Made by a program: the position numbers and the translations under genes
Notes under the pieces: generated by a model
Told to the model about the DNA's origin: nothing
Databases searched by the model: none
What the model saw: only the letters and a program-made list of their open reading frames with translations
Shown here: in pieces, positions 5,523 to 62,455 of the stretch
How the letters are laid out: the number at the start of each line of letters is the position of its first letter
Position numbering within the stretch: the first letter of the stretch is position 1
Source of the DNA: an uncultured Bacteroidota bacterium
Lineage (GTDB): Bacteria; Bacteroidota; Ignavibacteria; UBA10030; UBA6906
NCBI GenBank assembly: GCA_963700635.1
Contig: CAVOYH010000003.1
Location: forward strand, 192,001-256,000
Direction of reading: 5' to 3'
DNA length: 64,000 nucleotides

Positions 5523-5971
5523 GTAGCTTCCTCAATCAATATGTGTTTTAGATAGTTCAATACCTGTTGTGTTTTTGTCGTTGAAACGGGGATCACGAGC
5601 AGGGTGTTATCCCCCGCCACGGTGCCCAGGATGTGCGGGGAGTTCTGAATATCCACATACTCTCCGACCGTGTGTGCGGCGCCCGGAAGTGTATGGATCA
5701 CGATCACGAGCTCGTTGGCATCCATTCCCAGAACTTCGGCGCCCACGATCGGACGGAGGGCGGAGGATCCGTCTTGCGCGGGAATTGCATACTGGGGGAC
5801 TCCTCCGCGCACGATGCGGCTCACGCCGATTTCTTTCATATCGCGGGAAAGCGTGGCCTGCGTAACACGGAATGATCGTTTAGCCAGTTCCCGGCGAAGA
5901 GACTCCTGCGACGTAACCGTCCGCGTCGCCAGGATCTCCCGCACCGCGTACTGCCGCGCTGTTTTTGTCAT
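5519..5971 (-). CDS. argR: Arginine repressor
   Basis: VTQATLSRD winged-HTH motif, [14 protein letters not shown]. Confidence 0.95.
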
Positions 5972-5995
5972 ATACCGTCTCCTTCCGGAAGGATC

Positions 5996-14756: not shown

Positions 14757-14765
14757 GGAATCGGC

Positions 14766-15632
14766 CTATGCTTGCTGAGCTTTGGCGCTGCGGACCGCAT
14801 CTTCGAGTTCTGCGAACGATGGCCGCACGCTATGAAAAATGACTCGTCGGGAGAATTCCACCACAATAATCGGGGCATTCCCCTTGGCATAGGCGACGAT
14901 GCCGGCTTTGATACACTCCAGGAACCGTGCTTCCGACGCCTGGAGCAGCTCGATATGTGTTGCGAGGGGCTGCACAAAACCATACGATGCCAGAATACCG
15001 ATGAAGGTGCCCACCAAAGCCACTGCGACTTTATGCCCGATCTCCTCGGGAGGTCCGCTGATGGCCTGCATGGTAATCACGATACCCAGAACAGCAGCCA
15101 CAATTCCAAGTCCCGGAAGCGCATCTCCGATTTTCTGAATCAGAGCCGGTGCCGAAGCGCCCTCGGCATGGTGGCTGTCCAGGTCCGCATCCAGCAATGC
15201 TTCCACATCATACGGCGGCACACCCCCACCGAGAAGAAGCTTCATGGTATCGCACAGATAAAACAGCGCATGGTGATGCTGGAGAAGAAATGCATTCTTT
15301 GAGAATACCGTGCTCTTTTCAGGATCCATCACGTGCGGCTCGAGCGCGATCAAGCCATCCCGCTTGGCCACCGTAAACAGATCAAAAAGCGTCAGAAGAA
15401 GCTCGAGATAACGCTTTTTTGTGAACGGGTCGCCTTTAAACACTCCGAGCGTCTGGGCAAGCACCATTTTCAGTTGCACCAGCGGGGTCATAACCATCAG
15501 AGACCCTATCGCCGCGCCGCCGATGATCAGGAACTCGACGGGTTGGATGAGAACCATGAGTGGTCCACCTTCCAGCACAAAGCCCCCGAGGACTCCTATG
15601 AGTACGATTGCAGCGCCTATAATGACAAACAT
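14766..15632 (-). CDS. motA: Flagellar stator MotA (E. coli-like type)
   Basis: QPVEFLIIGGAAIG, DALPGLGIVAAVLGIV, ALVGTFIGILASYG, RPSFAELE. Confidence 0.93.
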   Translation of the reverse strand: MFVIIGAAIVLIGVLGGFVLEGGPLMVLIQPVEFLIIGGAAIGSLMVMTPLVQLKMVLAQTLGVFKGDPFTKKRYLELLLTLFDLFTVAKRDGLIALEPHVMDPEKSTVFSKNAFLLQHHHALFYLCDTMKLLLGGGVPPYDVEALLDADLDSHHAEGASAPALIQKIGDALPGLGIVAAVLGIVITMQAISGPPEEIGHKVAVALVGTFIGILASYGFVQPLATHIELLQASEARFLECIKAGIVAYAKGNAPIIVVEFSRRVIFHSVRPSFAELEDAVRSAKAQQA

Positions 15633-15653
15633 GGTAGTCCTGTCTCTTCTGCG

Positions 15654-15884
15654 TTAATCTTTCGTGTCCTTTGCTCCGGCCACCACGGCACTGCTGCCCG
15701 ACCGATCCGGAGAATGGGGTCCATGTGTTTCCGCAGCGCCGTGCGGCTCTGTACGAATCACGCGCACGCCTGGAGGTGCATCAATCCCGAGCTTTACCTG
15801 TCCACCCCGTATGGCAATCACTTTCACGACGATATTATCGCCGATCTTGATTGCTTCCGAGATTTTTCGTGAAAGCACCAGCAT
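15654..15884 (-). CDS. csrA: Carbon storage regulator CsrA
   Basis: MLVLSRK...IKIGDNI...QVKLGIDAP...VIRTE, adjacent to fliW. Confidence 0.9.
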
Positions 15885-15886
15885 GC

Positions 15887-16300
15887 TCACGTCCCTTCAA
15901 TGACGGCGTGTACTTCTATCGGAAACCTTTCCGGTAACGCCGCATCATCAAGCGTTACCTGTTCGCCCGTGCGGGGCCCGTTACGGATAATGATGGGATG
16001 GCGGAGATCGAGCCACCATGCCACGTCACCCTCTCCTGTCGTCACAATCACGAATGTGGTGGTCCCTTCGGCCAGGTTCTCGCAACTTGTGTTACCGTTC
16101 AGGACCACGGTCGGATCGAGCACGGTCAGCGCAAGATCCGGATCGTCAACACTTACCAGCCACTGAAACGGAGATGTCCGTTCATCATTAACGATAACAA
16201 GCCGTGTACAATCTTTCCGCTCCAGAAGTCCGTCTGGAAACCGTATCATCTGCTCTTCCGAGCAGGAGATCTCGCCGAAAAGTGTGCTCACAAACTTCAT
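15887..16300 (-). CDS. fliW: Flagellar assembly factor FliW (divergent)
   Basis: TLFGEI, IRFPDGL, FQWLVS, PIII, GEQV motifs; position next to csrA. Confidence 0.8.
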
Positions 16301-17055
16301 AGGCGTTTCCTCCGGGGAGTCCCTGGCGCAAGGGCTTCCGCCGTGTGTATGGATGGTTGATGTTGTACCTCGCCCGTGGCGATGATAACAATATCCACCC
16401 TTCTGTTCTTCGATCGATCCCCGGGCGTCTCGTTGGAAGCGATGGGAAAGAACTCCGAATACCCGACCACCGATACTCGCTCCTGAATCAGGCCGTGACG
16501 CTGTATAAGATAGTAGGCCACGTTGAGTGCGCGGGCAACGGAGAGATGCCAGTTCGACGGAAATTGTATGGTGCTGATGGGGACATTGTCGGTATGTCCC
16601 TCCACACGCAAGTCGTTCGGGAGTGTGCGCAGCACGCCTGCGAGAGTGTCGAGGGCGGTCAGGGACGTCTGTTTGATCTCCGCGCTCCCCGATGCAAAGA
16701 GGAGTTCTTCCAGGATATGGATGGTGACGCCGCGTTCATTTTCCGTGACGGTGATCGGGAGGTTCTGTGAATCCAGCTGCAGGGCGTTCCTTACGTCCTG
16801 CACAATCTGCTGGCGCTCGGACTTCAGCGCTGACCCCGGCTGTTCAATCATCGAGGCATTTCCCACCAGAATCCCCCGGGGGGAACCAAAAACGCCGTTG
16901 AGTGCTGATGCTATTTCTGCATACTTGCCTGCGTCAACTTTTGAAATTGCATACAGGATGACGAACAGTCCGAGCAGCAAGGTGATAAGATCGGCGTAGG
17001 TCAGAAGCCATCGATCTTCGTTGCCGTGATGCTGTTGTCTGCGCGTGCGTCTCAT
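16297..17055 (-). CDS. motB: Flagellar stator MotB (second type)
   Basis: DRWLLTYADLITLLLGLF, VEGHTDNVPI, FPSNWHLSVARA, NRRVDI. Confidence 0.93.
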   Translation of the reverse strand: MRRTRRQQHHGNEDRWLLTYADLITLLLGLFVILYAISKVDAGKYAEIASALNGVFGSPRGILVGNASMIEQPGSALKSERQQIVQDVRNALQLDSQNLPITVTENERGVTIHILEELLFASGSAEIKQTSLTALDTLAGVLRTLPNDLRVEGHTDNVPISTIQFPSNWHLSVARALNVAYYLIQRHGLIQERVSVVGYSEFFPIASNETPGDRSKNRRVDIVIIATGEVQHQPSIHTAEALAPGTPRRKRL

Positions 17056-17834
17056 CGTTTTTCCGGCTCCTGTTCACCCGCAGGAAGCATGCTGTTCAGT
17101 TTGGCTTTGATGACCGAAGGGATTTCCCCCGCCTGAATCGCCAGAATCCCCTCGACAATCATGTCCATAAAAAGGTATTCTTCGTTGTGGATGTACTTCA
17201 GCTTGTCCGCGATGGGCAGCCAGACGATATTCGCCATAAACACCCCCCAGAGTGTCGCGACGAAGGCACTTGCGATGTGCCGGATCAGCGTATCCGGATC
17301 CTCGCCCGCAGACGCCAGTGTCGCGATGAGCCCCATCACCGTTCCGATGATGCCCATTGTCGGGGAGTACCCGCCCATCTTCTGGAAGAGCGAGGCGCTT
17401 TGTGTATGCCGTTCAGTCACATAATCCACTTCCGTTTCAGCGAGCGATCGGAGGATTTCCGGTTCGGTGCCATCAATTGCAAAGCGAAGAATCTTGCGCA
17501 TAAACAGATTCTCCACTTTGCCGAGTTCTTTTTCCAGTGCGAGAAGGCCGTCCTTACGCGCGATGGTGGAAAACCGCACCAGCGTGTTAATCGCGTCCTG
17601 CATTGCGTACGTCGGAGGATAGACGACCAGTTTGATCATCTTCCCCATGCGCAGAAACGTCTTGAGCGACGTGCCGACAAGGGCGGCGGCAAACGTACCG
17701 CCAAAAACAATAAGCATGGCGGGGGGGAGCAACAGTCCCTCCATATTCCCGCCTTCCCAGAGGAAGGAACCGAATACGGCAGCCATGCCGAGAAAGAGAC
17801 CCAGGGTAGTTGCTATGTCAAGGGAACGTCTCAT
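17052..17834 (-). CDS. motA: Flagellar stator MotA (Firmicute/PomA-like type)
   Basis: IVFGGTFAA, ARKDGLLALE, YSPTMGIIGTVMGL, AFVATLWGV, EGILAIQAGE. Confidence 0.93.
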   Translation of the reverse strand: MRRSLDIATTLGLFLGMAAVFGSFLWEGGNMEGLLLPPAMLIVFGGTFAAALVGTSLKTFLRMGKMIKLVVYPPTYAMQDAINTLVRFSTIARKDGLLALEKELGKVENLFMRKILRFAIDGTEPEILRSLAETEVDYVTERHTQSASLFQKMGGYSPTMGIIGTVMGLIATLASAGEDPDTLIRHIASAFVATLWGVFMANIVWLPIADKLKYIHNEEYLFMDMIVEGILAIQAGEIPSVIKAKLNSMLPAGEQEPEKR

Positions 17835-25207: not shown

Positions 25208-25951
25208 CTACATCCGGCCGATATCCATCGTCCGGTCCAGAGTCGCGTCCTGCGACTGAATCATCCTTTGATCTGCTTCAAAAGCCCTGCTGAGCTCAAT
25301 CATGGCTATCATTTCTTCGATTCCTTCTACATTCGATTCTTCAAGGAATCCCTGACGTATGGAGACAGAATCCGATGGAACATCGCGCAGCATTTCACCC
25401 TGGTTCAGGAACAGAAGTGATTCATGATCCTTCTGGAGTGCCGTGGGGTTTTCCGCTGCAACGACCCGCAGGGTCCCGAGGGGCTCATTGTTATGCACGA
25501 CCTCTCCCGTCACATTAATCGCGATCGTATCCTGCTTGATTTTGTCCGTCTGCGGCATCTGAATCCGGCCTTTTGTTCCCAGCACAGGATATCCTTCCGC
25601 GGTAACGAGCGTGCCATCGGTGCTCAAGGAAAAGTTCCCGTTCCGTGTCAGCCGCATGCCACGAGGGGTCTCCACGGCGAAGAAGCCGTCACCCGCCAGC
25701 GCGAGGTCAAACGGATTCCCTGTCTGACGCAGTGCCCCGGCCGAGAGGTCGATATACCGCTGGGTCTCCACGCCGCTGAGATCTGAGCGCCCGTCTGGAC
25801 GGGCATTGGAAGACTCCTCCAGCATCCGGACAAACACTCGATCCCGTTTGAAGCCCGTGGTGTTGATGTTGGCCAGGTTGTTGGCGAGCACTTCCATGCG
25901 TGTCATTTTGGGCCGCATGGCCGCCTCTGACGAGTAGATGCCTTTGATCAT
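25208..25951 (-). CDS. flgF: Proximal rod protein FlgF
   Basis: ANNLANINTTGFKRD, TGNPFDLAL.GDGFF, TRNGNF, QGFLEESNV. Confidence 0.9.
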   Translation of the reverse strand: MIKGIYSSEAAMRPKMTRMEVLANNLANINTTGFKRDRVFVRMLEESSNARPDGRSDLSGVETQRYIDLSAGALRQTGNPFDLALAGDGFFAVETPRGMRLTRNGNFSLSTDGTLVTAEGYPVLGTKGRIQMPQTDKIKQDTIAINVTGEVVHNNEPLGTLRVVAAENPTALQKDHESLLFLNQGEMLRDVPSDSVSIRQGFLEESNVEGIEEMIAMIELSRAFEADQRMIQSQDATLDRTMDIGRM

Positions 25952-27117
25952 TGGTGATCCTCCTTCTTCTCCACCACCTGTCCCATGGATTTCAATTTCA
26001 CCGCGAGATCGAATTCCCCTCTTCCCACGCCCAGTTTCCGGGCTGCATGAAGTTGTTGGGTCTTCGTCGTGGCACGGGAAAGAACGGTTTCCATCCGGCC
26101 GGACGTGAGCGTTGGTTCTGTCTGTTCGTGAAAGCGCCGTGCAAGTGTAATCTCTTCGCTCCCCCGCTTGAACGTGCGCGCAAGCTGCAGCGAAGTCTCC
26201 CGGCCATTATCATGCTCTTGTGACTCATCTTCGATCAGGGCGCTGGAAAATGTGTTTCTTCGCGTCGTGCCCGTTTCTTCGTACGCATCGCCGGCAGCAA
26301 TCCCTTCAGGATTCGCCGGGAGTTCAGCGAAGGCAGTGGCGGCCCGGGGGAGCCTTGATTTCCCTGAACGGTGAGCTTTCCGCTGACGCGCCAGATACCA
26401 GGCGCCGAGCATGAGCCCTGTTGAAACCGAGCTTAGCCCCACACTCAGGAGTATGACAAACCCTGTTGAGAATCCGGACACCTGCGTATCCGCCGTCGAA
26501 GGGCCATTGGGAGAATACTCATGCGGGCTATCAGGCTCCATCTGGCGTCGGGCGACAGCCGGGATATCGACAAGAGGGCTCGTGGATGCCTGTCCGGGCG
26601 GTTCCTCTGCCGACGTGCGTGCAGGCTGAGTGCCGGCCGTGGGTCGCGCGGCTGTTCCGGCTTTTGTCGCTGTCGGAGCTGCAGGAGGTGGTGACGTGAT
26701 GCGCTCCGGCGTGCGCCGGACGATGTCACGTCCGTCAACCTCAACAAAGAGTTCGTTTCCGCTGGATGGCCGTACACAGCGGTACGTACTCCCCTCAACG
26801 ATCATCATGCTTACCACAAGGCTGTCGGATGCCGGGCTTGCAAAGGAGATACTCTCCAGCGGACCTGACGGGATGAGCCTCCGCTGGATTGTTCCCGGCG
26901 TTGCGGGCCGTGTACGCGAGAAGATCAGCCGTACGGCTCCTTTTCCCTGTTCTGTTGAAAAGCGCACGTCACCGGAAAACGCGAAGGTCACCTTGGTCCG
27001 ACCACTGTGTGTGGTGTAACGAACGTCTTTGAGGAGTGTTGTCTGGTCCGCACACAGGTGTCCCTGCGCAAGCACCAGAACAGCAACGACCAGAACGACA
27101 CTTGGCAGGCGCATCAT
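25948..27117 (-). CDS. Signal peptide + AMIN-like domain + Pro-rich linker + TM + C-terminal small HTH-like module (DUF6115/DUF2802-like)
   Basis: N-terminal beta-rich LKDVRYTTHSGRTKVTFAFSG region, TM GFVILLSVGLSSVSTGLMLGAWYL, C-terminal AARKLGVGRGEFDLAVKL. Confidence 0.6.
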   Translation of the reverse strand: MMRLPSVVLVVAVLVLAQGHLCADQTTLLKDVRYTTHSGRTKVTFAFSGDVRFSTEQGKGAVRLIFSRTRPATPGTIQRRLIPSGPLESISFASPASDSLVVSMMIVEGSTYRCVRPSSGNELFVEVDGRDIVRRTPERITSPPPAAPTATKAGTAARPTAGTQPARTSAEEPPGQASTSPLVDIPAVARRQMEPDSPHEYSPNGPSTADTQVSGFSTGFVILLSVGLSSVSTGLMLGAWYLARQRKAHRSGKSRLPRAATAFAELPANPEGIAAGDAYEETGTTRRNTFSSALIEDESQEHDNGRETSLQLARTFKRGSEEITLARRFHEQTEPTLTSGRMETVLSRATTKTQQLHAARKLGVGRGEFDLAVKLKSMGQVVEKKEDHQ

Positions 27118-28478
27118 CGTGGTGCCCTCCAGACCGGCAAGAATATCGTGAATGTTGTCCCCTTCGCCTCTTCACTTTCGACCCGGATTTCGCCTTTATG
27201 CTGGGCGATGATTTTGCTGCAGATCGCAAGGCCCAGTCCGGTTCCCTTTTCCCCTTTTGTGCTGAAAAACGGTTTGAATATTTTTTCCTGAAGATCTTTC
27301 GCAATGCCGTGTCCGGTGTCGGAGAAACTGACACACACATGGAATCCCGTCAGTGTTGAGGACACGCCGATCGTTCCTCCTCCAGGCATCGCGTCGCGCG
27401 CATTGATGAGCAAATTAAGAAACACCTGCTGGAGATAGTTGGCATTCCCCCCGACGGCAGGAAGATCCTGTGCAAGTTTTTGTTCGATGGTGATCCCGTT
27501 TCCCTCGAATTCATGCTGCACCATCATCACAATGTCTTCGATCGCTCTATTGACGTCAATCGGCTCCGTGACGACCTCCTCGGATGCGTTCCGGGAGAAG
27601 TTCATGAGGCGGAGAGTGATGTCGGAAAGCCGTTTTACCTGTTTGCTGAACATCTCGATCCAATTGGGCAGGGGTCGGCCGGCCTGTACAAGTTCGAGAT
27701 GGAGCATCAGCACCTGCAGGGGATTTTTGATTTCATGGGCGATCCCCGCGGCCAGCTCGCCGATAGCGGCCAGTTTTGCTGCCTGTACCATTTGCGCCTG
27801 CGACGCCTTGAGTTCGTCGTTTGCCTTCAGGAGCTGCTGATATGTTCTCCAGTTTTCCACGCCCACCGCGGCCTGGTTGGCAAGCACCGACAGGAGCTGG
27901 ATGTCCTGATTCGAAAACTCCTGCTGGGGTTTTTCGGTGTGGATGATGAAGACCCCGATGCCCTGGCTTCGCAGGATCAGGGGCACGATCACAAAATTTC
28001 GCGCGCTGCTCTTCGCCAGCATATGTTCCAGGTCCGGGATGATGACCGTCTTCTTTTCCGAGATCACCCAATCCACGATCCCTGCCTCCAGCTGGTGTTC
28101 CGCCTCGGCCTGAAGCCGGGGTGCGCTTTTTGACGAAAGAGGCAGCAGGTGTCTGGAAGTTGACTGGAACAGGAAGATGTTACTGTCAAGCACCTGAATC
28201 ACCTGTCGCGCAAGCTCGAGCAACGCACTGACGATGAGTTCCGGCTCGGTTGCCGTGCTGATGATATTTGACAATCGTTGTGTGGCGACCAGTTCATCGA
28301 TGGAACTACGGATGGCCAGATTGTTCTGGTTAAACTGCACGTTATCCTGCCGCAGGATATCAATTGTTTTTTCGAGCGCCTTGATGTACGTCTCACGGCT
28401 CTCGATGAACTGCTCGAATTGGGGTAGACCCTCTTCAAGGAGCTGCATCCGGTTTTTTTTCTTCGGGACAGATTCCAT
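27114..28478 (-). CDS. Cytoplasmic GAF-domain sensor histidine kinase (NtrB-like)
   Basis: GELAAGIAHEIKNPL H-box, QVFLNLLINARDAM, DTGHGI, FKPFFSTK, GTGLGL. Confidence 0.9.
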   Translation of the reverse strand: MESVPKKKNRMQLLEEGLPQFEQFIESRETYIKALEKTIDILRQDNVQFNQNNLAIRSSIDELVATQRLSNIISTATEPELIVSALLELARQVIQVLDSNIFLFQSTSRHLLPLSSKSAPRLQAEAEHQLEAGIVDWVISEKKTVIIPDLEHMLAKSSARNFVIVPLILRSQGIGVFIIHTEKPQQEFSNQDIQLLSVLANQAAVGVENWRTYQQLLKANDELKASQAQMVQAAKLAAIGELAAGIAHEIKNPLQVLMLHLELVQAGRPLPNWIEMFSKQVKRLSDITLRLMNFSRNASEEVVTEPIDVNRAIEDIVMMVQHEFEGNGITIEQKLAQDLPAVGGNANYLQQVFLNLLINARDAMPGGGTIGVSSTLTGFHVCVSFSDTGHGIAKDLQEKIFKPFFSTKGEKGTGLGLAICSKIIAQHKGEIRVESEEAKGTTFTIFLPVWRAPR

Positions 28479-28492
28479 GGTCGTCGTAATGA

Positions 28493-29368
28493 CTACCCCC
28501 CTCCTGATTGGCCAAACTGGGTAACCGCTGCCAGGTCCGTTTTGACCAGCGCATGGTAGTTTTCTACGTATTCCTGAAGCACCTTGGGATCGTTGAGCTG
28601 GAGGTGTTCCAGCGCCCAGGGACTAAAGTCAGCGCCTTTGTCAAATTCCATAGGTTGTACATCCATGCGCCAGGAGAAGATATCAGCACAGTGAATGATC
28701 GCGACCAGGTCCTTGTTCTTTTCGGCCCGGTCGGGAGTATGATGCATGTTGATTGCCTCCACCAGATGGTCGGGAAGATTCCATCGCTCGGCCAGCCATC
28801 CCCCGACTTCCGCGTGTGTCACTCCCAGAACACTCTCTTCGGCTTCCAGCGCCGTCAGGTCCGTCTCATGAATGATTTCCGTGATCCGTTTGTATTCATT
28901 CTTAAAGTACCGGTGGAGCACGGAGATCCCCATATCGTGCAGGAGCCCTCCCACAAACACTTCGCCGGACACCCGGTATCCCAGATCGCGGGCCAGGCGC
29001 CGGGCCAGCACACCGCACATGATGGCATGGTCCCAGAACCCTTTGGCGTTGAACATTGCATCCGACTTCCTCTGTAACGAACTCACGAGGGAGATGCTGA
29101 TCACGATCTCCTTCAACGCATCATACCCAAGCACAATAATGGCAAAGTCGATCGTCGAGATCTTCCTGGGAAATCCATAGAATGGCGAATTGGCAATTTT
29201 AAGTACTTTTGCCGTTAACGCCTGATCCGTCGAAATGAGTTTCCCCAACCTGGACGCACTGGTTTTGGGATTATCGACAAGCTCGACGAGTTCCATTGCA
29301 ATCGTAGGCAGAGCAGGGAGTTGAATAATGCTCTGCACTCTTTCTTTGATGATTTCCGATGACATCAT
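28493..29368 (-). CDS. HDOD domain protein
   Basis: LPALP, DQALTAKVLKIANSPFYG, FWDHAI, GLLHDMG, HAEVGGWLAERWNLP. Confidence 0.92.
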   Translation of the reverse strand: MMSSEIIKERVQSIIQLPALPTIAMELVELVDNPKTSASRLGKLISTDQALTAKVLKIANSPFYGFPRKISTIDFAIIVLGYDALKEIVISISLVSSLQRKSDAMFNAKGFWDHAIMCGVLARRLARDLGYRVSGEVFVGGLLHDMGISVLHRYFKNEYKRITEIIHETDLTALEAEESVLGVTHAEVGGWLAERWNLPDHLVEAINMHHTPDRAEKNKDLVAIIHCADIFSWRMDVQPMEFDKGADFSPWALEHLQLNDPKVLQEYVENYHALVKTDLAAVTQFGQSGGG

Positions 29369-29386: not shown

Positions 29387-30433
29387 TTACAGACAATCAT
29401 GGATAGTGGCCGCCAGGGTTGACAGAGCGACGTCATGCAACCGGTACACGTCTTCCTCCGTGGTCCCCATAAGGTGCGCGACTTCGCCGATGGCCAGCCC
29501 TTCCTGGTAGCAAAGGGCAAGTGTAAGACGTTCCTTGTATGGCAGCGCGCCGATTGCTTCCACCAGCGATTGTTTCAGCGCCGCGACCAGCCGGTCGAAT
29601 GCCGGGGCCTCCGCCATCCCTTCCTGAATACGTATCGTATCATCCTGCAGCCGGGGGGGCGTCAGATCGTCCTCGGTTAACCCCAGGAGCGTCAACGCAG
29701 TCTGGTCATACGCCTGTTCGGCGTCGGCCTCATACCTGCCGACATCCATACGGCGGCAGAGGATATCCGCAATGTGCACCGTCGCGACAAGGTATGGATC
29801 ATACACGGCGTTGGCCGGATGATGGTGATACCGGACCGCTTCCACGATGCGATCTCCCAGACCCCATTGTTCCGCAAGCCAGGAGCCGATTTCTCCGTGA
29901 TGTTCCACCACGGTTTGCGGGTCTTCCGGCGCGAGGTTCCAACGGATATGACCTTCACGCTGTTCTGCAGGGGAGATCATGCCGATATCGTGGAAGAGTC
30001 CCGCCACAAAAGCGTCATTCTCATGCACAGGCGGATACTTCCGGGCCAGGACTCGCGCCACAAGGCCGCAGGCGATAGAGTGGTTCCAGAACTCTCCATA
30101 CTGCGTGAACAAATCAACGATTGTACGGAATGCTCCTGTCACCACCATACGCATGACCGTATCCCGTAACGCATCAAATCCCAGCATGGTGACGGCATGT
30201 GGCACTGTTTCCACACGCGCCGGGATACCAAGGGAGGGCGAATTGGCAATCCGCAGCACGCGTTCGCTCAGTCCGCGATCGGATGACACGATGGCTCCAA
30301 GTTGCGCCACGCTTGATGCGGGATTCCGCATCACCCCGAGCAGTTCCGTCACCAGCGCTGAACGATCACGGTGCGGCGCTACAGACGTGAGCGAGGACTG
30401 CTCTAATACCGCCAGGCGTGTCTGACGAGTCAT
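29387..30433 (-). CDS. HDOD domain fused to C-terminal sigma70 region-4-like HTH
   Basis: DRGLSERVLRIANS, FWNHSIACG, AGLFHDIG, HGEIGSWLAEQWGL. C-terminal LVEAIGALPYKERLTLALCYQEGLAIGEVAHLMG. ATGA overlap with the upstream gene. Confidence 0.85.
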   Translation of the reverse strand: MTRQTRLAVLEQSSLTSVAPHRDRSALVTELLGVMRNPASSVAQLGAIVSSDRGLSERVLRIANSPSLGIPARVETVPHAVTMLGFDALRDTVMRMVVTGAFRTIVDLFTQYGEFWNHSIACGLVARVLARKYPPVHENDAFVAGLFHDIGMISPAEQREGHIRWNLAPEDPQTVVEHHGEIGSWLAEQWGLGDRIVEAVRYHHHPANAVYDPYLVATVHIADILCRRMDVGRYEADAEQAYDQTALTLLGLTEDDLTPPRLQDDTIRIQEGMAEAPAFDRLVAALKQSLVEAIGALPYKERLTLALCYQEGLAIGEVAHLMGTTEEDVYRLHDVALSTLAATIHDCL

Positions 30434-31509
30434 GACCACTCTCCGAATTCCGCGAGCATCGTTGTAAACCTCTGGAGTGCGTGCCCATGCATAAGTACAA
30501 CATGGTCCCGCGTTGTCCCCAGGACGCCCGCAATGCCTGCCAGCGAAAGGCCTTCAAAGTAGTGCAACGCCAACAAAAAACGCTCCTGCTCTTCCAGGTC
30601 TTCAAATGTATTGATCAGATTTTCCTTGACCACACTGACTTTTAATTGTAGTGCCGGTGCGCGATGCAGGACTCGTTCCTCCAGCGAGCACATCCGATGC
30701 TCCATCGATTCTGATGCGCATCCCGACAGTAACCCGAGTGTGTCACAGGCGCTCCGGGAGAAGGCCATTTCCGGCTCTTGCCCCATGGGGCCTCCGAACA
30801 GACGATGGCAGATGACATCGGCAACATGGACCACGGCGGCAAGCACAGGATTCTGCTCGGTGCCGGTCGGCCCGTGGTGATGACGTACTGCATCACGTAA
30901 GTCCGCATCAAGAGTCTCCCAGCGATCCAGCATCCATGATCCGGCTTCTTCATGCATTCCTTCAGGGGTCAGGAGATTCGGACGGCGATGATCGTATTCG
31001 GGTCTCCAATCCAGAAGCCCCTCCACTTCGGGAGAAGGCAGATCGTCACCCAGGAACAGGAATCCGATATCATGAACGAGCCCGGCGACAAATGCCCGGT
31101 CTCTCTCCCGGCAGCCTGTCTCTGCGGCAACAGCCCGTGCAACAAGCCCGCACATCAGCGAATGATCCCAAAGGTCTTCGCAGTAGTGGAAGCTGTTGAC
31201 AATATGCCGCGTTGCCCTGCTGGCAACCGCCCACTTCACGGTGTCCCGGATGGACTGCGAGCCGAGCAGGCCGAGGGCAAGGTTGACATCCCGTACCTGA
31301 CCCGGGAGGCCGAACGCGGTATTTGCCGACAGAGAGAGCGAACGCATAAGAATCGGATTCCATCCAATCACCGCTGCCAGGCGCGAGACGGGTGTCAGCG
31401 GATCGTTGACAAGCGCGACCACATACTCGAGCACCCTGGCCTTAAACGGAAATGCGGCTCCCGTCTCCAGGGCGCGATGTTCAAACTCATCAACAATGGG
31501 CATCCGCAT
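30430..31509 (-). CDS. HDOD domain fused to C-terminal sigma70 region-4-like HTH
   Basis: LWDHSLMCG, AGLVHDIG, HEEAGSWMLDRW. C-terminal LEEQERFLLALHYFEGLSLAGIAGVLG. GGAGG precedes ATG 31509. Confidence 0.85.
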   Translation of the reverse strand: MRMPIVDEFEHRALETGAAFPFKARVLEYVVALVNDPLTPVSRLAAVIGWNPILMRSLSLSANTAFGLPGQVRDVNLALGLLGSQSIRDTVKWAVASRATRHIVNSFHYCEDLWDHSLMCGLVARAVAAETGCRERDRAFVAGLVHDIGFLFLGDDLPSPEVEGLLDWRPEYDHRRPNLLTPEGMHEEAGSWMLDRWETLDADLRDAVRHHHGPTGTEQNPVLAAVVHVADVICHRLFGGPMGQEPEMAFSRSACDTLGLLSGCASESMEHRMCSLEERVLHRAPALQLKVSVVKENLINTFEDLEEQERFLLALHYFEGLSLAGIAGVLGTTRDHVVLMHGHALQRFTTMLAEFGEWS

Positions 31510-31513
31510 GCTC

Positions 31514-32269
31514 TTATGCCTCCATGGCGACAAGTCTGGTCCGGAGCTGGCGCAACACTTCGGAATGTATCTGCGATATGCGCCCTTCTGAGATATCAAG
31601 AACCTTTGCGATCTCCGTAAATTTTAGACCTTCGTAGTAGTACAGCGCAATGACGGTGCGGTCGCGCTCCGGCAGCCGCTCGACGGCCTCCAGCAGGATG
31701 GCGCGGGTTTCTTGCTCGCTGAGACGGTCGAATGGACTTGGCCCGTCGGATGGTGTCTCATCCAGCGCTTCTGCACTGTCGCTCCCGCCTCCGGCGCCGG
31801 CCTCGCGCGAAGGAGCTACAGACCCGGTGCCGATGAGCTCATAGTATTCCTCCAGGGTGATTTCGAGCTTCCCGGCTATTTCTGCGTCAAGAGGTTCTCT
31901 CCCGTTCTGCTGCATAACCTGATGGGCGGCTTTGCCCACCTTCCGCGATGTCTCACGCACCGACCGGGGGACCCAGTCGAGTTTACGCATCTCGTCGAGA
32001 ATCGCACCCCGAATACGTGGCACGGCGTACGTTTCAAATTTGACGTTCTGAGCCGGCGTGAACCGGTCCACCGCACTCAGGAGTCCCAGGATGCCAAAAT
32101 GCACCACGTCGTCGAATTCCAGACCCTGCGCTCTCCCGTGATGATGCAGCCCGAACTTGCTCACGACATAGCGCACCAGATCGAGATACTGCACGACGAG
32201 TTTCCTCTTCAGTTCCGGGGTGCGGATCCGAAGGAACTCATCCCACAGGTATTGTGTCGATTCGTGCAT
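31514..32269 (-). CDS. fliA: Flagellar sigma factor sigma28 (FliA/WhiG)
   Basis: KFETYAVPRIRGAILDEMRKLDWVPRSVR, LPERDRTVIALYYYEGL..EIAKVLDISEGRISQIHS. Confidence 0.95.
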   Translation of the reverse strand: MHESTQYLWDEFLRIRTPELKRKLVVQYLDLVRYVVSKFGLHHHGRAQGLEFDDVVHFGILGLLSAVDRFTPAQNVKFETYAVPRIRGAILDEMRKLDWVPRSVRETSRKVGKAAHQVMQQNGREPLDAEIAGKLEITLEEYYELIGTGSVAPSREAGAGGGSDSAEALDETPSDGPSPFDRLSEQETRAILLEAVERLPERDRTVIALYYYEGLKFTEIAKVLDISEGRISQIHSEVLRQLRTRLVAMEA

Positions 32270-32289: not shown

Positions 32290-32565
32290 TCATGCTGCCG
32301 TCGCCGGGAATTGGGTTGATGAAGACGTCGTTTGATCCGACGCCAGACTTCCTTCCACGCGCGGAGGTGTTTCTGCCGGCATGGGGTGCGGCTTTCTTCT
32401 CATGCTCGTCGCCACCATCAAAATCACAATTTGTCCTGTCACGACGGCGATAAAGACGATGAACCCGCGCGCAATAATATCGAACAGAGGGAGACCCTGT
32501 GTGCCGAACAGCACGGCCGAGACAAAAAATGCCAGTGCACCGACCTGAATCACCACTTTCGTCAT
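32290..32565 (-). CDS. Small two-TM hypothetical membrane protein between flhG and fliA
   Basis: ATGA overlap with flhG; two hydrophobic helices. Confidence 0.65.
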   Translation of the reverse strand: MTKVVIQVGALAFFVSAVLFGTQGLPLFDIIARGFIVFIAVVTGQIVILMVATSMRRKPHPMPAETPPRVEGSLASDQTTSSSTQFPATAA

Positions 32566-33401
32566 AGCGCCACCATACGATTAAGTGAACCCTTCACGTG
32601 GTCGTTCACGATTGCATGGGCCAGCGATTGCAGGGACAGCGCCGCAGCCGAGCGCGGATACGAAAGGACCAGCGGGTGCTGCCGGCGGATCGCTTCGCTG
32701 ACACGATCATCGCTTGGAACAATTGCGGCACAATGCACTTCGCGACCGAGAAAATGACGCACTGCAGCACGGAGTTTCGTCATGGTTTCCTCTCCCTCCC
32801 GAATCGACCGTGCGTTGTTGATCACGAGTTCCACAACCTGCCCCGGCGCATTGATCCCCATGACCTTGATCATGGCATAGGCATCCATCACTGCTGTCGG
32901 CTCTGTGGTCGTCACAACAAGCACGCTGTCGGCTTCCTCTCCGTACCGGATGATTTCCGGGGTGAGTCCGGCCGCAGTGTCGATAATCAGCACATCACTC
33001 CTCTGCTCGCGGTCGAGCAGATCGTGCAACAGCGCCATCTGCCGTTCGCCCTCCAACAGCGGAAAGTGTGGCTCCCCCGAACTTCCGGGCAGAAGATGCA
33101 ACCCGGGCGCAAGTGCCACAAGAACGCTTTCCAGATCCTGATCTCCCCGCAGCACGTCACCCAACCGGAACCGGGGCACAACACCCGCCATCACGTCAAG
33201 TCCGGCCAGGTTTGCATCAGCGTCAAAGAGGAGCACCTTTTTGCCCACCATGGCGAGCGAGAGGCCGACATTAAGTGCGACGGTGCTCTTGCCGACTCCC
33301 CCTTTGCCGCTCGTAACGGTCAACACGTACGGCCGGGCCGTCCGGGTGCCTACCTGGTAGGCGCGTGCAAAGCCGCGCATCCGTGTCGCCTGATCATGCA
33401 T
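32562..33401 (-). CDS. flhG: MinD-like flagellar number regulator FlhG/FleN
   Basis: DQA N-terminal motif, TSGKGGVGKS, DTAAG, EPTAVMDAYAMIK. Start set at MHDQA (33401). Confidence 0.92.
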   Translation of the reverse strand: MHDQATRMRGFARAYQVGTRTARPYVLTVTSGKGGVGKSTVALNVGLSLAMVGKKVLLFDADANLAGLDVMAGVVPRFRLGDVLRGDQDLESVLVALAPGLHLLPGSSGEPHFPLLEGERQMALLHDLLDREQRSDVLIIDTAAGLTPEIIRYGEEADSVLVVTTTEPTAVMDAYAMIKVMGINAPGQVVELVINNARSIREGEETMTKLRAAVRHFLGREVHCAAIVPSDDRVSEAIRRQHPLVLSYPRSAAALSLQSLAHAIVNDHVKGSLNRMVAL

Positions 33402-34650
33402 GAGCCATTTCTCCCGAATACACCATGGCAGCCAGTTGGGGCGCTTCAACCCGGCGAATATCATCGGGCACGGCCTGTCCCGTCGTCACATATGACAGGG
33501 GGAGGTGGTGCCGGTGAACAATACTCAGCAGCGGTCCATAGGTCGCCGCTTCATCCAGCTTTGAAAAAATGAGCCGGTTGGGTTTTACCACCTTAAACTG
33601 ATCGATAATCTCTTCGCAGGTCTTGACGTTGGTGGATGCGTTGAGCACAAGGTGTGTTTCGTCAGGATCAGCAGCGAGCACAAACTTCGCGAGATCGAGC
33701 AGCTCTTTTTTCGACCGCTGGCTGCGCCCGACGGTATCAACAAACACCACGTCTTTCGTCCGGAATTTTTTTAGTGCCGCGGCCATTTCCACGGGTTTGT
33801 AGACCACATCCATCGGGATGTCGGCAATGCCCGCAAACGTGCGCAACTGCTCGATGGCGCCGATTCTGTAGGTATCGGCGGAGATCAGGCCGACATCCAG
33901 ACCGCTCAACAGTTTGTTGATGGCCGCAAGTTTTGCGATGGTCGTGGTTTTGCCGACTCCCGTCGGTCCGACAAGCGCAATAACCCGCGTCTTTTTCCGT
34001 CTCGCCTTCTCCGTCTGGGCAGTCGGAATGATTCCCGCGATCGCTGCCAGGAGCTGTTTTTCCAGATAGGATTTGTTGGTGATCTGGTCCTGATTCATAC
34101 GGGCATATACCGTCTGAATGATGTCCGCGGCCAGATGTTCATCCACATCGTGCTGCACAAGCCGGCCGTATGCTTTCTGGAGGTTGTCCGGAAGGGCGGG
34201 CATGCGCGAGTATTTCAGATGCTCGACGATGGCCAGTAACGTTCCCTTAACATCTTCCATGTCGCTCCGCAGTTCCACGATTTCTGTGGGTTCCGCCCGC
34301 CGCCTGCCTGAAGATCCGGGCCGTACGTCATCGGACTGCCGTTCGCTGAACTGCTCGGCAACGCGGCGAAGTCCCGCGAGGGCGCTCTCTTCATCGAGTC
34401 CTGCCCGCGACTGCTCCAGGTGTTTGTCGAATCCCGCTGCGCCCGACCGTCGCCGGTAGGTATTCTGTACGGCCGGAGGTGTGTCATCGATAGCGCCGGT
34501 CACTTCGTACGCATCACGACCCAGAAAATTGAAGGGGCCGCCCCGTGTGATTTTCCGGCTGCTGATCACTATCGCTTCAGGGCCGAGGTCGACCTTGATC
34601 TGGTCAGTCGCTTCCTTGATGGAATGGGCGACAAATTTCTTAATCCTCAT
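33394..34650 (-). CDS. flhF: SRP-family GTPase FlhF
   Basis: GPTGVGKTTTIAKLA, DTYRIGAIEQL, DTVGRS, SKLDE, GQAVPDDI. Confidence 0.95.
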   Translation of the reverse strand: MRIKKFVAHSIKEATDQIKVDLGPEAIVISSRKITRGGPFNFLGRDAYEVTGAIDDTPPAVQNTYRRRSGAAGFDKHLEQSRAGLDEESALAGLRRVAEQFSERQSDDVRPGSSGRRRAEPTEIVELRSDMEDVKGTLLAIVEHLKYSRMPALPDNLQKAYGRLVQHDVDEHLAADIIQTVYARMNQDQITNKSYLEKQLLAAIAGIIPTAQTEKARRKKTRVIALVGPTGVGKTTTIAKLAAINKLLSGLDVGLISADTYRIGAIEQLRTFAGIADIPMDVVYKPVEMAAALKKFRTKDVVFVDTVGRSQRSKKELLDLAKFVLAADPDETHLVLNASTNVKTCEEIIDQFKVVKPNRLIFSKLDEAATYGPLLSIVHRHHLPLSYVTTGQAVPDDIRRVEAPQLAAMVYSGEMAHA

Positions 34651-36736
34651 AGTCAGCCTCCAGCTTTCCTAGGAACTCTACTTCCGTGTCCGGCGGTAGT
34701 TCCGTGAACGAAAGCACGGCCACACCGGGGAACGATATGTGAATCAATCTGTAAAAATACGGCCGCACCGTGGCCGCGCACAGGATCACGGGGGGATAAC
34801 CGTGATGCTGGGCCAGTTCGATATTCTCGGTTAAGCTTGTATGAATGGACTGAATCGTGCGGGGCGAAAGCCCCAGACTCGGGCTTGTCTCGCGCTGATT
34901 CTGTAAGGCAGAAGTGATCGTCTGCTCCAGCCGCGGATCCATGGCGATCGCATGAATCATCCCCTTGGGATCGCCGTACAAACGCACGATAGTCTCTGAT
35001 AATGAATGGCGCACATACTCGGTCAGCACATCCACATTTTTCGTCACACGCCCATAATCGGCAAGCGCTTCAAGGATGGTGACGAGATCGCGAACCGGAA
35101 TACCTTCTTTAAGTAGATTCTGGAGGACCTTCTGCACCGATCCGGTGGGAAGAAGTTCAGGCGTAAGCTCTTCGACAACTGCGGGATAATCCTTCTTCAA
35201 ATTCTCGATGAGTTTCTTTGTATCCTGCCGTCCCAGGATCCGGTCGGCATTCTTCCGGAGCACTTCCTGCAGATGGGTTGACAACACGGCCGACGGTTCT
35301 ACCACGGTGTAGCCGCAGAGTTCCGCACGTTCACGATGACTACCGGAAATCCATACTGCATGCAGACCGAACGCCGGTTCCCGGACCTCAAGGCCATCAA
35401 GTGCACCGTCCGCACTGCCCGGATTCATCGCCAGAAATCGATCCATCAGGAGGGCCCCAGTCGCGGCAACATTCCCCCGTATCTTCACGACATAGTCGTT
35501 TGGATCCAATTGCAGGTTGTCGCGTACCCGCACGGGTGGTATCACGATGCCAAGATCAATCGCCAGCTGCCGGCGCATGTTGGTGATGCGGGCGAACAGA
35601 TCGCCGTCCCGTGCTTCATCCACAAGTGAAATCAAGCCGTATCCGATTTCCAGTTCAACCGGATCAACCTGGAGATAATCCTCGACCCGTTCCTCCTTTG
35701 GCGCAGCGGCGGCAGCAGGGATGGTTGCCGCATCAGCAGCCGTTCGGCGGTCCCGTGTTTTTACATAGCCGATTCCGCCGGTGAACATAGCCATGAGGAG
35801 GAAAGGCAGTGTCGGCATTCCTGGGACAATCGCAAAGAGAAAGAGGGCGCCGGAAGCGATGAGCATCGTCTTCGGCCTGCCGAAGATCTGACTCCGGATT
35901 TCCATGTCAAAAGCGTTTCCGGCAGCGCTGCGTGTGACGATCATACCCGAAGCGACCGCGACAATAAGAGCCGGAATCTGGGTTACGAGGCCATCTCCGA
36001 CGGTGAGGAGCGTGTACCTCTGCAGGGCATCGGAAAACGGCATGCCGCGTTGCGCCACCCCTATCACAAATCCGCCCACGATATTGACAATATTGATGAG
36101 GAGTCCCGCGATCGCGTCCCCCTTGACAAACTTACTCGCGCCGTCCATGGCACCGTAGAACTCGGCCTCCCGGGAAATTTCCCGTCTCCGGTCGCGTGCT
36201 TCCTTCTCTGTAATCATCCCTGCATTCAGGTCGGCATCAATAGCCATCTGCTTGCCGGGCATTCCATCCAGCGTGAAGCGGGCTGCGACCTCGGAGATCC
36301 GGCCGGCGCCCTTGACAATGACGATAAACTGTATCAAGACAAGAATCAGGAAGATGATGAACCCGACCACGTAATTCCCCTTCACCACGAACGAACCGAA
36401 TGCCATGATGACTTCTCCGGCATATCCATCGCCCAGGACCAGACGGGTCGAAGCGACGTTCAGGCCAAGCCGGAAAATCGTCAGGATCAGCAAGAGACCG
36501 GGGAACACAGAGATCTCCAGGGGGTTGGTCAGGTACATGGAGACCATAAGGACAAGGATGGCGATCGTAATGTTAGCAGCCAGGAGCACATCCAGCATGA
36601 ATGCGGGGATCGGGATGATCAGCAGCGCGAGGATGAAGATCACGCTGACAGCGAGCAAGACATCGCTGTTCGCACCCATCACCCTGAGCGGGGTGTTCCA
36701 GATCGAGCGTCCCTGTATTGTCGCAAGTGCGTCCAT
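34640..36736 (-). CDS. flhA: Flagellar export gate FlhA
   Basis: RISEVAARFTLDGMPGKQMAIDADL, FYGAMDGASKFVKGDAIAG. Confidence 0.97.
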   Translation of the reverse strand: MDALATIQGRSIWNTPLRVMGANSDVLLAVSVIFILALLIIPIPAFMLDVLLAANITIAILVLMVSMYLTNPLEISVFPGLLLILTIFRLGLNVASTRLVLGDGYAGEVIMAFGSFVVKGNYVVGFIIFLILVLIQFIVIVKGAGRISEVAARFTLDGMPGKQMAIDADLNAGMITEKEARDRRREISREAEFYGAMDGASKFVKGDAIAGLLINIVNIVGGFVIGVAQRGMPFSDALQRYTLLTVGDGLVTQIPALIVAVASGMIVTRSAAGNAFDMEIRSQIFGRPKTMLIASGALFLFAIVPGMPTLPFLLMAMFTGGIGYVKTRDRRTAADAATIPAAAAAPKEERVEDYLQVDPVELEIGYGLISLVDEARDGDLFARITNMRRQLAIDLGIVIPPVRVRDNLQLDPNDYVVKIRGNVAATGALLMDRFLAMNPGSADGALDGLEVREPAFGLHAVWISGSHRERAELCGYTVVEPSAVLSTHLQEVLRKNADRILGRQDTKKLIENLKKDYPAVVEELTPELLPTGSVQKVLQNLLKEGIPVRDLVTILEALADYGRVTKNVDVLTEYVRHSLSETIVRLYGDPKGMIHAIAMDPRLEQTITSALQNQRETSPSLGLSPRTIQSIHTSLTENIELAQHHGYPPVILCAATVRPYFYRLIHISFPGVAVLSFTELPPDTEVEFLGKLEADYED

Positions 36737-36740
36737 GTTG

Positions 36741-37826
36741 TCAGTTCATTGCGTACGTGTTCGACGACTGTTTGACCTTGTAGATATATGCCAGCAACTG
36801 TGCGATCGCCTGGAAGAGTTTTTCCGGGACTTCCTGCCCGATTTCCACGGACCGGTACAACGCCTGGGCCAGCGGGCGGTCTTCCACAATGGGAACGTGG
36901 TGCGCCTTGGCGATTTCCCGGATTTTTAGTGCTATAAGATCTGCTCCTTTTGCCACAACCCTAGGCGCGTTCATTTCTTCCGCGTCATACCGGAGCGCCA
37001 CCGCAAGATGTGTGGGGTTTGTCACGACGACGTCCGCCTTCGGAACATCCTGCATCATGCGTCGATACGCGATCCGGCGCTGGATACTGCGAACCCGGCT
37101 CTTCACCATGGGATCACCTTCCATCGCCTTGTTCTCTTCTTTCACTTCCTCCTTGCTCATACGCAGATCCCGCTCGTGTTCAAACCGCTGAAAGAAAAAG
37201 TCAAGAATCGCCAGAACCAGAAATGCCAGTCCCGCCTTAATACCGAGTCCGAAAGCGGTCTCACCAAGAAAACCGAGAAGGGCGGTTGGATCGCTGCCCA
37301 CCAGGGTCGGGGTCTCCACAATCACCCCCTCCAGAGAAGAGTAGGCCACCGTTCCCACGACGAACACCTTCACGAGGCTCTTCGAGAGTTCCATGAGGGA
37401 TCGGCGAGAGATGAGTATTTTCTTAATCCCGTTCAGCGGGTTAAGTTTGCTGAATTGTGGTTTGAGCACTTCCGGTGAGTACACGAAGCCAACCTGAAGG
37501 TAGGAGGCGGTTAGTCCGACCACCATAATCCCGAAAATAATCGGGGCCAACAACATGCCCAGGCTCACCACACCGGATCCGACGAGATGGTGAAGCGTCT
37601 CCACCGTAACAGGCAAGGACCCTGCCCGGATAAACGTCGCCCGCGCAATTTCGGCCAGGCCGTTGACCAGTGCTCCCCCCGCGAAGTAGAGGATGAGCAG
37701 ACCGAACATGAGAACGAACGCGGAATTCAGCTCCACGCTGCGGGCGATCTTGCCCTTGCGTTTCGCCTCTTCGCGTTTGCGATCACTCGCTGGTTCGGTT
37801 TTTTCCTGGAACGACTCTTCAGCCAT
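36741..37826 (-). CDS. flhB: Flagellar export switch FlhB
   Basis: EKTEPAS, EGDP, VVTNPTH autocleavage motif. Confidence 0.97.
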   Translation of the reverse strand: MAEESFQEKTEPASDRKREEAKRKGKIARSVELNSAFVLMFGLLILYFAGGALVNGLAEIARATFIRAGSLPVTVETLHHLVGSGVVSLGMLLAPIIFGIMVVGLTASYLQVGFVYSPEVLKPQFSKLNPLNGIKKILISRRSLMELSKSLVKVFVVGTVAYSSLEGVIVETPTLVGSDPTALLGFLGETAFGLGIKAGLAFLVLAILDFFFQRFEHERDLRMSKEEVKEENKAMEGDPMVKSRVRSIQRRIAYRRMMQDVPKADVVVTNPTHLAVALRYDAEEMNAPRVVAKGADLIALKIREIAKAHHVPIVEDRPLAQALYRSVEIGQEVPEKLFQAIAQLLAYIYKVKQSSNTYAMN

Positions 37827-62381: not shown

Positions 62382-62455
62382 GGGCTCTCTGACCAGTAAT
62401 GGGATCAGGGCGGGATCGAGGACCTGTTGATGCGATCTCCGCCACGTGAGTTCTC

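Follow-up and report, generated by a model that had tools for sequence, protein, structure and literature searches.

HDOD proteins with a FliA-derived sigma region 4 encoded directly downstream of fliA in an uncultured Bacteroidota bacterium: candidate sigma-28 modulators

What might a copy of the last domain of a sigma factor be doing on a signaling protein encoded beside the sigma gene itself? The question is raised by a 64,000-nucleotide stretch of DNA (the window; positions 192,001 to 256,000 of contig CAVOYH010000003.1, assembly GCA_963700635.1) from an uncultured Bacteroidota bacterium. There, fliA, which encodes the flagellar sigma factor sigma-28, is followed by two genes whose products join an HDOD domain to a C-terminal tail related to region 4 of FliA. 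We call these proteins HDOD-r4 (r4 for sigma region 4), and we refer to the genome as G000 and to the contig as C3. The original prediction, a note made from the letters of this stretch, had described two tandem HDOD genes after fliA. The open reading frames (ORFs) of fliA and of the two HDOD-r4 genes were found where it had placed them, and the first two HDOD genes do bear region 4, but the HDOD genes are three in number, the third (H3) lacking region 4. In our best reading, the HDOD-r4 proteins would be sigma-28 modulators acting through the surface of region 4. The principal features are as follows (aa, amino acids; HMM, hidden Markov model).

31514-32269, minus strand: fliA (sigma-28), 251 aa; regions 2, 3 and 4 by Pfam; TIGR02479 217 bits (cut-off 189.6); donor of the copied tail
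30430-31509, minus strand: HDOD-r4 paralogue 1, 359 aa, from start analysis; Pfam HDOD 92.9 bits
30868-31440, minus strand: HDOD domain of paralogue 1; PF08668, residues 54-244 of the 389-aa frame; 3HC1 Z 13.6
30442-30648, minus strand: FliA-derived sigma region 4 of paralogue 1; custom region 4 HMM, residues 318-386 of the 389-aa frame; NCBIfam FliA/WhiG models, E 3.5e-8; blastp to FliA
29387-30433, minus strand: HDOD-r4 paralogue 2, 348 aa, from start analysis; Pfam HDOD 138.5 bits
29816-30355, minus strand: HDOD domain of paralogue 2; Pfam; full His/Asp metal-ligand set; 3MEM and 3HC1 Z about 14
29393-29593, minus strand: FliA-derived sigma region 4 of paralogue 2; model superposition on sigma-4 domains; blastp to FliA
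28493-29368, minus strand: third HDOD gene (H3), 291 aa, without region 4; Pfam HDOD 221.4 bits; slowly evolving neighbour of fliA
27114-28478, minus strand: GAF-HisKA-HATPase histidine kinase; Pfam; conserved gene after H3 in the relatives read

Start analysis placed the most likely start of paralogue 1 at the ATG at 31509, 4 nt past the fliA stop codon and behind a GGAGG sequence, and not at 31599. Paralogue 2 starts at the ATG at 30433, in an ATGA overlap with the stop codon of paralogue 1, and H3 begins 18 nt after paralogue 2. This tight packing suggests that fliA and the three HDOD genes form one operon with coupled translation.

All three HDOD genes scored far over the Pfam gathering cut-off for PF08668 (22.9 bits). 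For the tails, Sigma70_r4 (PF04545, cut-off 24.1 bits) and r4_2 (PF08281, cut-off 25.7 bits) gave 21.2 and 22.4 bits in paralogue 1 (frame 30430-31599, HDOD 92.9 bits) and 21.9 and 20.8 bits in paralogue 2 (frame 29387-30439, HDOD 138.5 bits); according to precomputed annotation, PF04545 is present in most orthologues. A Pfam search found neither Sigma70_r2 nor Sigma70_r3 in either HDOD-r4 protein, in keeping with the predicted lack of a sigma-2 region, and nor did it find GerE (PF00196) at E<=1. Since regions 2 and 3 are missing, the HDOD-r4 proteins cannot be sigma factors.

The top NCBIfam sigma models for both tails were those of FliA/WhiG (E 3.5e-8 to 1e-7), ahead of the models for extracytoplasmic function (ECF) sigma factors. 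TIGR02479 gave 31.8 and 33.5 bits for the two proteins, set against its cut-off of 189.6, and covered only their last 75-77 residues. When a profile of 13 tails was compared with the PDB, the first seven matches were FliA/WhiG entries (E 1e-14 to 2e-10), followed by BldN (5e-7) and SigF (6e-7). By blastp within the window, residues 264-340 of paralogue 2 aligned with FliA 164-242 (32% identity, E 1e-8) and residues 284-352 of paralogue 1 with FliA 178-246 (30% identity, E 2e-8), while residues 27-279 of paralogue 2 and the N-terminal part of paralogue 1 matched H3 (E 1e-46 and 1e-28, respectively). The likeness to FliA reaches into the linker between regions 3 and 4, where FliA has SPFDRL and paralogue 2 has APAFDRL; the AP is invariant in the 13 tails.

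Structure models gave a similar picture for paralogue 2. Its AlphaFold2 model (predicted local distance difference test score [pLDDT] 82.4, predicted template modelling score [pTM] 0.72) matched 3MEM (Z 14.5), 3HC1 (Z 14.2) and SadB (Z 13.6) in the HDOD part. Residues 277-348 of the model superposed on the sigma-4 domain of AlgU with Z 12.4 and a root mean square deviation (rmsd) of 1.1 A over 72 residues; the tail also superposed on DNA-bound region 4 of sigmaE (Z 12.2, rmsd 1.2 A over 68 residues) and on WhiG (Z 11.3, 27% identity). The model of paralogue 1 (pLDDT 82.7, pTM 0.81) has four terminal helices as in paralogue 2, and the structural matches listed for it were HD-domain chains (3HC1 Z 13.6), with nothing on the tail, so that its region 4 rests on sequence and on the four-helix pattern. 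The N-terminal ~250 residues of both proteins are a standard HDOD domain (Pfam; structural Z 13-14.5). H118, H148, D149, H179, H203 and H204 are invariant in 92 and in 75 aligned sequences, and the HDOD domains keep what appears to be a complete candidate di-metal His/Asp site.

The original prediction had aligned the tails with region 4 of FliA by eye. That homology is borne out for each C terminus by Pfam scores just under the cut-off, by the best NCBIfam models, by the PDB profile and by blastp. The C termini score as sigma-4, that of paralogue 2 is also modelled as such, and they group with FliA and not with ECF or LuxR helix-turn-helix (HTH) domains (NCBIfam, the region 4 tree described below, the PDB profile and the lack of a GerE match).

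Origin and distribution of the HDOD-r4 genes

We searched 61 genomes of the same order, found 22 to be FliA positive and read the loci in these. An HDOD gene follows fliA in 21 of the 22 (the exception is G041), and in 10 of them a gene bearing region 4 lies between fliA and the HDOD gene. Six genomes (G000, G001, G002, G003, G005 and G033) have the order fliA, HDOD-r4, HDOD-r4, HDOD, kinase; G008 has a single full HDOD-r4 gene, and at this position G042, G019 and G025 encode short region 4 proteins of 230, 190 and 134 aa, respectively. There is no region 4 gene at this place in the other 12, among them G004, from the same genus.

Two loci from other metagenome-assembled genomes (MAGs), L041 and L042, have fliA followed by an HDOD-r4 gene (357-358 aa), an HDOD gene and the kinase. 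In G089 (family f8) and G352 (family f7), fliA is followed by an HDOD-r4 gene (357 aa) and, farther on, by the kinase; an HDOD gene is called between the latter two in G352, and none is called in the 885-nt gap of G089. In G332 and G340 (genus g21), a stand-alone region 4 of 88-93 aa overlaps fliA or lies just after it. Every homologue locus read was directly downstream of fliA, as the predicted linkage implied, and the gene order fliA, region 4-bearing gene(s), HDOD, GAF kinase recurs within one order of uncultured bacteria labelled Bacteroidota.

We also noted that in L041 (positions 3975-6257; the MAG is labelled uncultured Bacteroidetes bacterium) an H3-type HDOD protein and the GAF kinase make up one 760-aa ORF, in which a sequencing error at the stop codon is possible. 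This Rosetta-stone fusion is a hint that the H3 protein and the kinase may work together.

Orthologues of paralogue 2 and paralogue 1 fell into about 42 and 34 clusters (90% identity), respectively, most of them annotated with PF08668 plus PF04545. The few source names given are Bacteroidetes, Bacteroidota or Ignavibacteriales MAGs, and the product labels are 'HDOD domain-containing protein' or 'sigma-70 family RNA polymerase sigma factor'. Among 401 genomes sampled evenly from the phylum, which amounts to no census, matches to the tail other than FliA itself were found in eight genomes, all of this order; four of the eight were checked by ORF reading. A search of genome contigs for loci with the HDOD motif returned mainly HDOD-only loci, the tail being covered in 3 of the 80 loci among the matches listed.

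A tail-profile search of 1.84 billion representatives gave 12,058 matches, of which the best 150 were classified. These comprised 17 HDOD plus region 4 proteins, 47 FliA-like sigma factors whose N-terminal part has regions 2-3, 78 short region 4-only or other proteins, many of which are probably gene fragments, and 8 proteins with multiple copies of region 4. No fusion partner except HDOD was found among these best 150 of the 12,058. Among the matches to the tail profile, P0159, P0172, P0177, P0249, P0160 and P0170 (from other genomes, 340-1000 aa) consist of at least three Sigma70_r4 domains in tandem and have no region 2, and some far longer matches (3336-5981 aa) have 8-9 matched stretches.

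Phylogenies of the two halves indicate where they came from. In a tree of region 4 segments, 15 of the 16 extra segments formed one clade (96/93) inside an unresolved FliA polytomy, and the 16th, from G042, was sister to that genome's own FliA (91/94); FliA and the tails lay apart from nine other region 4 segments of the same genome, with weak support (68/91). In a tree of HDOD domains, the HDOD parts of the fusions were sister to the adjacent H3 clade (99/94 against the other HDOD genes of G000), and the G042 fragment fell with the H3 clade. The two trees agree in placing G019 with paralogue 1 and G008 with paralogue 2. The 230-aa G042 protein is itself a clean chimera, residues 30-144 resembling residues 25-139 of that genome's own HDOD protein (H3) with 43% identity and residues 141-229 resembling residues 156-244 of its own FliA with 42% identity.

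The trees and the chimera thus point to a tandem duplication across the junction between the 3' end of fliA and the 5' end of the HDOD gene, and such a duplication automatically gives the order fliA, HDOD (N-terminal part)-r4, HDOD. An origin of the fusion by tandem duplication, from the region 4-coding part of fliA to a point inside the adjacent HDOD gene, is well supported. The HDOD part came from H3, which is fliA's ancestral neighbour, and the tail came from fliA. We infer two or more such duplications in this order and, in the main lineage, a further copying of the fusion that preceded the split between G008 and G019.

FlgM and the possible role of the tail

The invariant residues of the tail (R54, A58, Y61, E63, G64 and A71 in the numbering of the tail alignment) are those of the sigma-4 core. 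The recognition helix is nearly invariant in FliA, as SE(G/S)R(I/V)SQIH; in each paralogue family it is almost unconserved and is the least conserved part of region 4, so that the divergence from SEGRISQ remarked on in the original prediction holds for both families. Region 4 is retained in 34 of 34 members of family 1 and 42 of 43 members of family 2, and its net charge in these is -3.5 and -3.0, respectively, compared with -1.0 for the 22 FliA proteins and +2.0 for the nine other sigma factors of the genome. The HTH half alone has a net charge of -3.9 in paralogue 2 versus +0.8 in FliA. An acidic region 4 with an unconserved recognition helix speaks for a role in protein binding and against the reading of specific DNA sequences.

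The most likely partner in such a role would be the anti-sigma factor FlgM, which had been thought absent from this cluster. A FlgM profile run over the 494 ORFs of the window indeed gave nothing better than E 2.4, but two FlgM-like genes lie 11-14 kb past the right end of the window. PF04316 (cut-off 25 bits) found no match at E<=1 in the whole G000 genome, FlgM1 included, and TIGR03824 gave one weak match (E 0.33) that proved to be a true orthologue after relatives were aligned. FlgM1 (C3:267144-267440, minus strand, 98 aa) is a clear orthologue of the FlgM of relatives, and six of seven aligned FlgM1 orthologues match PF04316 (that of G008 with 25.4 bits); FlgM2 (C3:269818-270096, minus strand, 92 aa) is a second, faster-evolving paralogue. 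With a profile built from the orthologues, G000 FlgM1 scored 129 bits and FlgM2 42 bits, and FlgM-like genes were found in 22 of the 22 FliA-positive genomes. The proposal that HDOD-r4 proteins replace FlgM was therefore rejected, the weak TIGR03824 match in G000 itself being FlgM.

The two FlgM-like genes belong to a duplicated late flagellar unit (C3:267144-271576, minus strand, 11-15 kb past the right end). One unit consists of a sigma-28-type promoter motif, a flagellin gene (281 aa), a FlaF-like gene and FlgM2, and the other of a promoter motif, a near-identical flagellin gene, a gene for a 266-aa protein, FlbT-like and FlaF-like genes and FlgM1. In a motif scan, TAAA-N15-(G/C)CGATA motifs preceded both flagellin genes. 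FlbT and FlaF are typical of Alphaproteobacteria, and their presence here was unexpected.

The genomes with an intact FlgM2 are precisely the six that carry two HDOD-r4 genes. The FlgM2 sequences make up a single clade (83/94), to which a degenerate 79-aa copy, missing profile positions 15-51, also belongs; it comes from G022, whose genome is 100% complete and lacks HDOD-r4 genes. A second FlgM copy is present in G011 too, on a short separate contig, and G004, which lacks HDOD-r4, could not be scored for FlgM2 because its contig ends 360 bp from FlgM1. That FlgM2 occurs together with the HDOD-r4 pair, and decays where the pair is missing, is suggestive.

The idea that these proteins modulate sigma-28 draws indirect support from two sources, the recognition helix, which is acidic and unconserved, and the distribution shared with a second FlgM. 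In a more specific form, which we find quite possible while stopping short of calling it probable, the HDOD-r4 proteins, apparently coexpressed with FliA, would be mimics of its tail; they would bind a ligand of sigma-4, most likely FlgM, and serve as HDOD-gated anti-anti-sigma factors. The region 4 module would no longer read DNA, its sigma-4 scaffold being kept as a protein-binding mimic of the FliA tail. Made alongside FliA through coupled translation, as the overlapping and abutting genes suggest, it would compete with FliA for the sigma-4 ligand, most likely FlgM, the anti-sigma factor, and by this mimicry would free FliA. The HDOD domain, modelled as docked to region 4, may gate the exposure of region 4 in response to a signal, and the H3 protein and the GAF kinase are probably part of the same circuit.

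A bolder and rather doubtful version is that the locus encodes a second, self-made partner switch for sigma-28, in which duplicated FliA tails act as signal-gated FlgM sponges and a dedicated FlgM2 has been acquired in this genus. If this were so, late flagellar expression would be set by FlgM export together with an intracellular metal, redox or nucleotide signal sensed through HDOD, and the locus would be the first case of sigma mimicry outside ECF/PhyR, with its birth by tandem duplication still legible.

Several points weigh against FlgM-directed mimicry. Sigma-28 binds FlgM through regions 2, 3 and 4 together, and an isolated region 4 may bind weakly. Both tails fall just short of the Pfam cut-offs for region 4. 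The models suggest that region 4 is packed on the HDOD domain (pTM 0.72 and 0.81). The co-distribution of FlgM2 comprises a single clade and a single event of decay (G022), hence two independent observations at most, and a second FlgM is not required, as G008, G089 and G352 have one HDOD-r4 gene and one FlgM. Finally, Actinomycetota have HDOD plus GerE (LuxR HTH) proteins of comparable length, so that an HDOD-HTH DNA binder is a real architecture.

We considered three other explanations, each of which we regard as unlikely. The first is that region 4 binds the beta-flap tip helix of core RNA polymerase under HDOD control and lowers or rebalances the binding of sigma factors, for instance through negative feedback on the formation of FliA holoenzyme. 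The conserved sigma-4 core, the relaxed DNA-reading residues, the sigma-4 fold of the paralogue 2 model and the conservation of stand-alone 88-134-aa region 4 proteins in genus g21 would all suit such a competitor. On sigma-4, the surfaces used by FlgM and by the flap overlap, so that sequence cannot separate this competitor from a FlgM decoy. The flap is, however, common to all sigma-70-type factors, which leaves the linkage to fliA, the descent from FliA region 4 and the co-distribution with FlgM2 unexplained, and a binder of the shared flap would be costly if made in FliA-like amounts.

The second explanation, to which we give a similarly small chance, is a DNA-binding regulator whose HTH recognizes -35-like sigma-28 promoter elements or other sites, with HDOD as the sensor, in the manner of the Actinomycetota HDOD proteins with a LuxR/GerE domain. 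In the ESM Atlas, those clusters (332-383 aa) are the nearest nonself neighbours (score 0.86, no more than a lead); as described above, the tail superposes on sigmaE region 4 bound to -35 DNA, and most members of paralogue 1 have an Arg early in the recognition helix. Yet in both families it is this helix that is least conserved within region 4, net charges of -3 to -3.5 (-3.9 for the HTH half of paralogue 2) do not favour DNA, GerE was not matched, and a motif scan found no sigma-28-type promoter motif near the HDOD genes in the window. Compared with mimicry of the FliA tail, DNA binding is therefore less likely.

Third, and again improbably, the tail might have no sigma-related target, being an appendage of an HDOD protein in the H3/GAF-kinase circuit (a SadB-like proteolysis adaptor, for example) or a slowly decaying by-product of the duplication. 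The high pTM suggests a compact two-domain body, the genes have been lost repeatedly (G004, G022 and others lack them), and HDOD-r4 evolves much faster than H3, as seen in the HDOD tree and in ratios of nonsynonymous to synonymous substitution (dN/dS) of 0.06-0.15 overall for HDOD-r4 and 0.018-0.040 for H3. Against this, dN/dS of the region 4 part is itself 0.08-0.14, and both domains are under purifying selection. Moreover, region 4 is kept in all but one of the family members, it survives where the HDOD part has been shortened or lost (G019, G042, G025, G332 and G340), and the fusion arose at least twice independently.

The surrounding flagellar cluster

The window (G000 C3:192001-256000) consists mostly of one long minus-strand flagellar cluster, with arginine-biosynthesis and other genes at the low-coordinate end. 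The genes flanking those described above are as follows.

36741-37826: flhB; flagellar cluster, gene order upstream of fliA
34640-36736: flhA; flagellar cluster
33394-34650: flhF; flagellar cluster
32562-33464: flhG; flagellar cluster
32290-32565, minus strand: small membrane ORF, 91 aa, between flhG and fliA; no family match
25948-27117, minus strand: 389-aa protein, after the kinase and before flgF; signal or transmembrane segment

Hydrophobic ORFs resembling the 91-aa ORF sit at the equivalent place in G004, G008 and G340. The 389-aa protein, which has repeated C-terminal G-x-G-E-x-x-L-A motifs and is kept between the kinase and flgF in most relatives read, had a weak match to DUF6115 (E 0.17) as its sole match; it is followed by flgF, flgG, flgA and more flagellar genes.

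A fourth HDOD protein, HDOD only (57407-58300, minus strand, Pfam 216.7 bits), lies at the upstream end of the cluster, flanked by large hybrid histidine kinases (55225-57414 and 59145-62561) and with several single-domain response regulators nearby. At its other end, the cluster closes with a response regulator carrying an HD_5 (HD-GYP-like) domain and has two MotA/MotB pairs with a FliW gene in between (12910-13971 and 13968-17834, both minus strand).

Comparison with known systems

No description of the HDOD-r4 architecture or of a sigma-28 mimic was found in the literature searched, which did not extend to supplementary files, and the original prediction likewise knew of none. In databases, some members already bear the label 'HD/HDOD/Sigma-70 region 4' or 'sigma-70 family sigma factor'. 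Sigma-28 is controlled by FlgM, which is exported once the hook is complete. To our knowledge, only a few cytoplasmic proteins, such as HsbA, are known to override FlgM, and PhyR is essentially the one known case of sigma mimicry. At the present locus, the C-terminal domain of a sigma factor has been copied, repeatedly, onto a signaling domain beside the gene for that same sigma factor, and intermediates persist in the form of the chimera, truncated forms and stand-alone region 4 proteins. HDOD-r4 is thus a concrete candidate for a new way to gate the flagellar late genes and a clean example of a regulatory mimic born by tandem duplication, and its locus offers a way to approach, by association, the function of HDOD, a domain that is poorly understood. 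The organisms are uncultured.

The HDOD domain of HDOD-r4 is a standard one, like those of 3HC1, 3MEM, SadB (9QZK), Cj0248 (1VQR) and GsmR, none of which carries a sigma domain. PMC12075610 describes a di-iron site of five His and one Asp in 3HC1, and these six residues have invariant counterparts in the HDOD-r4 proteins. It also describes SadB as a protein-binding adaptor with AmrZ; SadB lacks three of the His ligands, whereas the HDOD-r4 proteins keep them. Several HDOD proteins affect motility, according to PMC11004494.

The Actinomycetota HDOD plus GerE/LuxR-HTH proteins share with HDOD-r4 the domain order, a similar length and a small HTH of the same superfamily (ESM Atlas, score 0.86). 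Their HTH is of the GerE type, whereas that of HDOD-r4 is FliA derived, acidic and fliA linked, with no GerE match at E<=1. Several such clusters (332-383 aa) have this analogous architecture and are seemingly uncharacterized.

In sequence, the HDOD-r4 tails are closest to region 4 of the FliA/WhiG sigma factors (1RP3 and 9WSF, sigma-28/FlgM; 6PFV and 7LQ4, WhiG/RsiG/c-di-GMP), with 27-35% identity to these chains in structural alignments. Unlike these sigma factors, HDOD-r4 lacks regions 2 and 3, and its DNA-reading helix has diverged.

As proposed for HDOD-r4, a cytoplasmic, signal-controlled protein sequesters FlgM in Pseudomonas aeruginosa, where HsbA frees sigma-28 independently of FlgM export, as set out in PMC5085249. 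HsbA differs in being a STAS-type anti-anti-sigma factor under phosphorylation control; it is no sigma mimic, and its gene is not beside fliA.

A further parallel is the PhyR/NepR/sigma-EcfG system of the alphaproteobacterial general stress response, in which, too, a sensor domain is joined to a domain that derives from a sigma factor and lacks sigma function, and the mimic takes the anti-sigma factor from the real sigma factor, as proposed for HDOD-r4. The sigma-like part of PhyR is held against the sensor domain until the signal arrives, and we propose the same for HDOD-r4. PhyR joins a receiver to an ECF module resembling sigma-2 and sigma-4, whereas HDOD-r4 joins HDOD to only the linker and region 4. 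Binding of PhyR to NepR by mimicry of a sigma factor is described in PMC4551977, while anti-sigma binding by HDOD-r4 is a proposal. In HDOD-r4, unlike in PhyR, the donor is the group 3 sigma factor FliA encoded next door, and the local tandem duplication that copied it is still visible.

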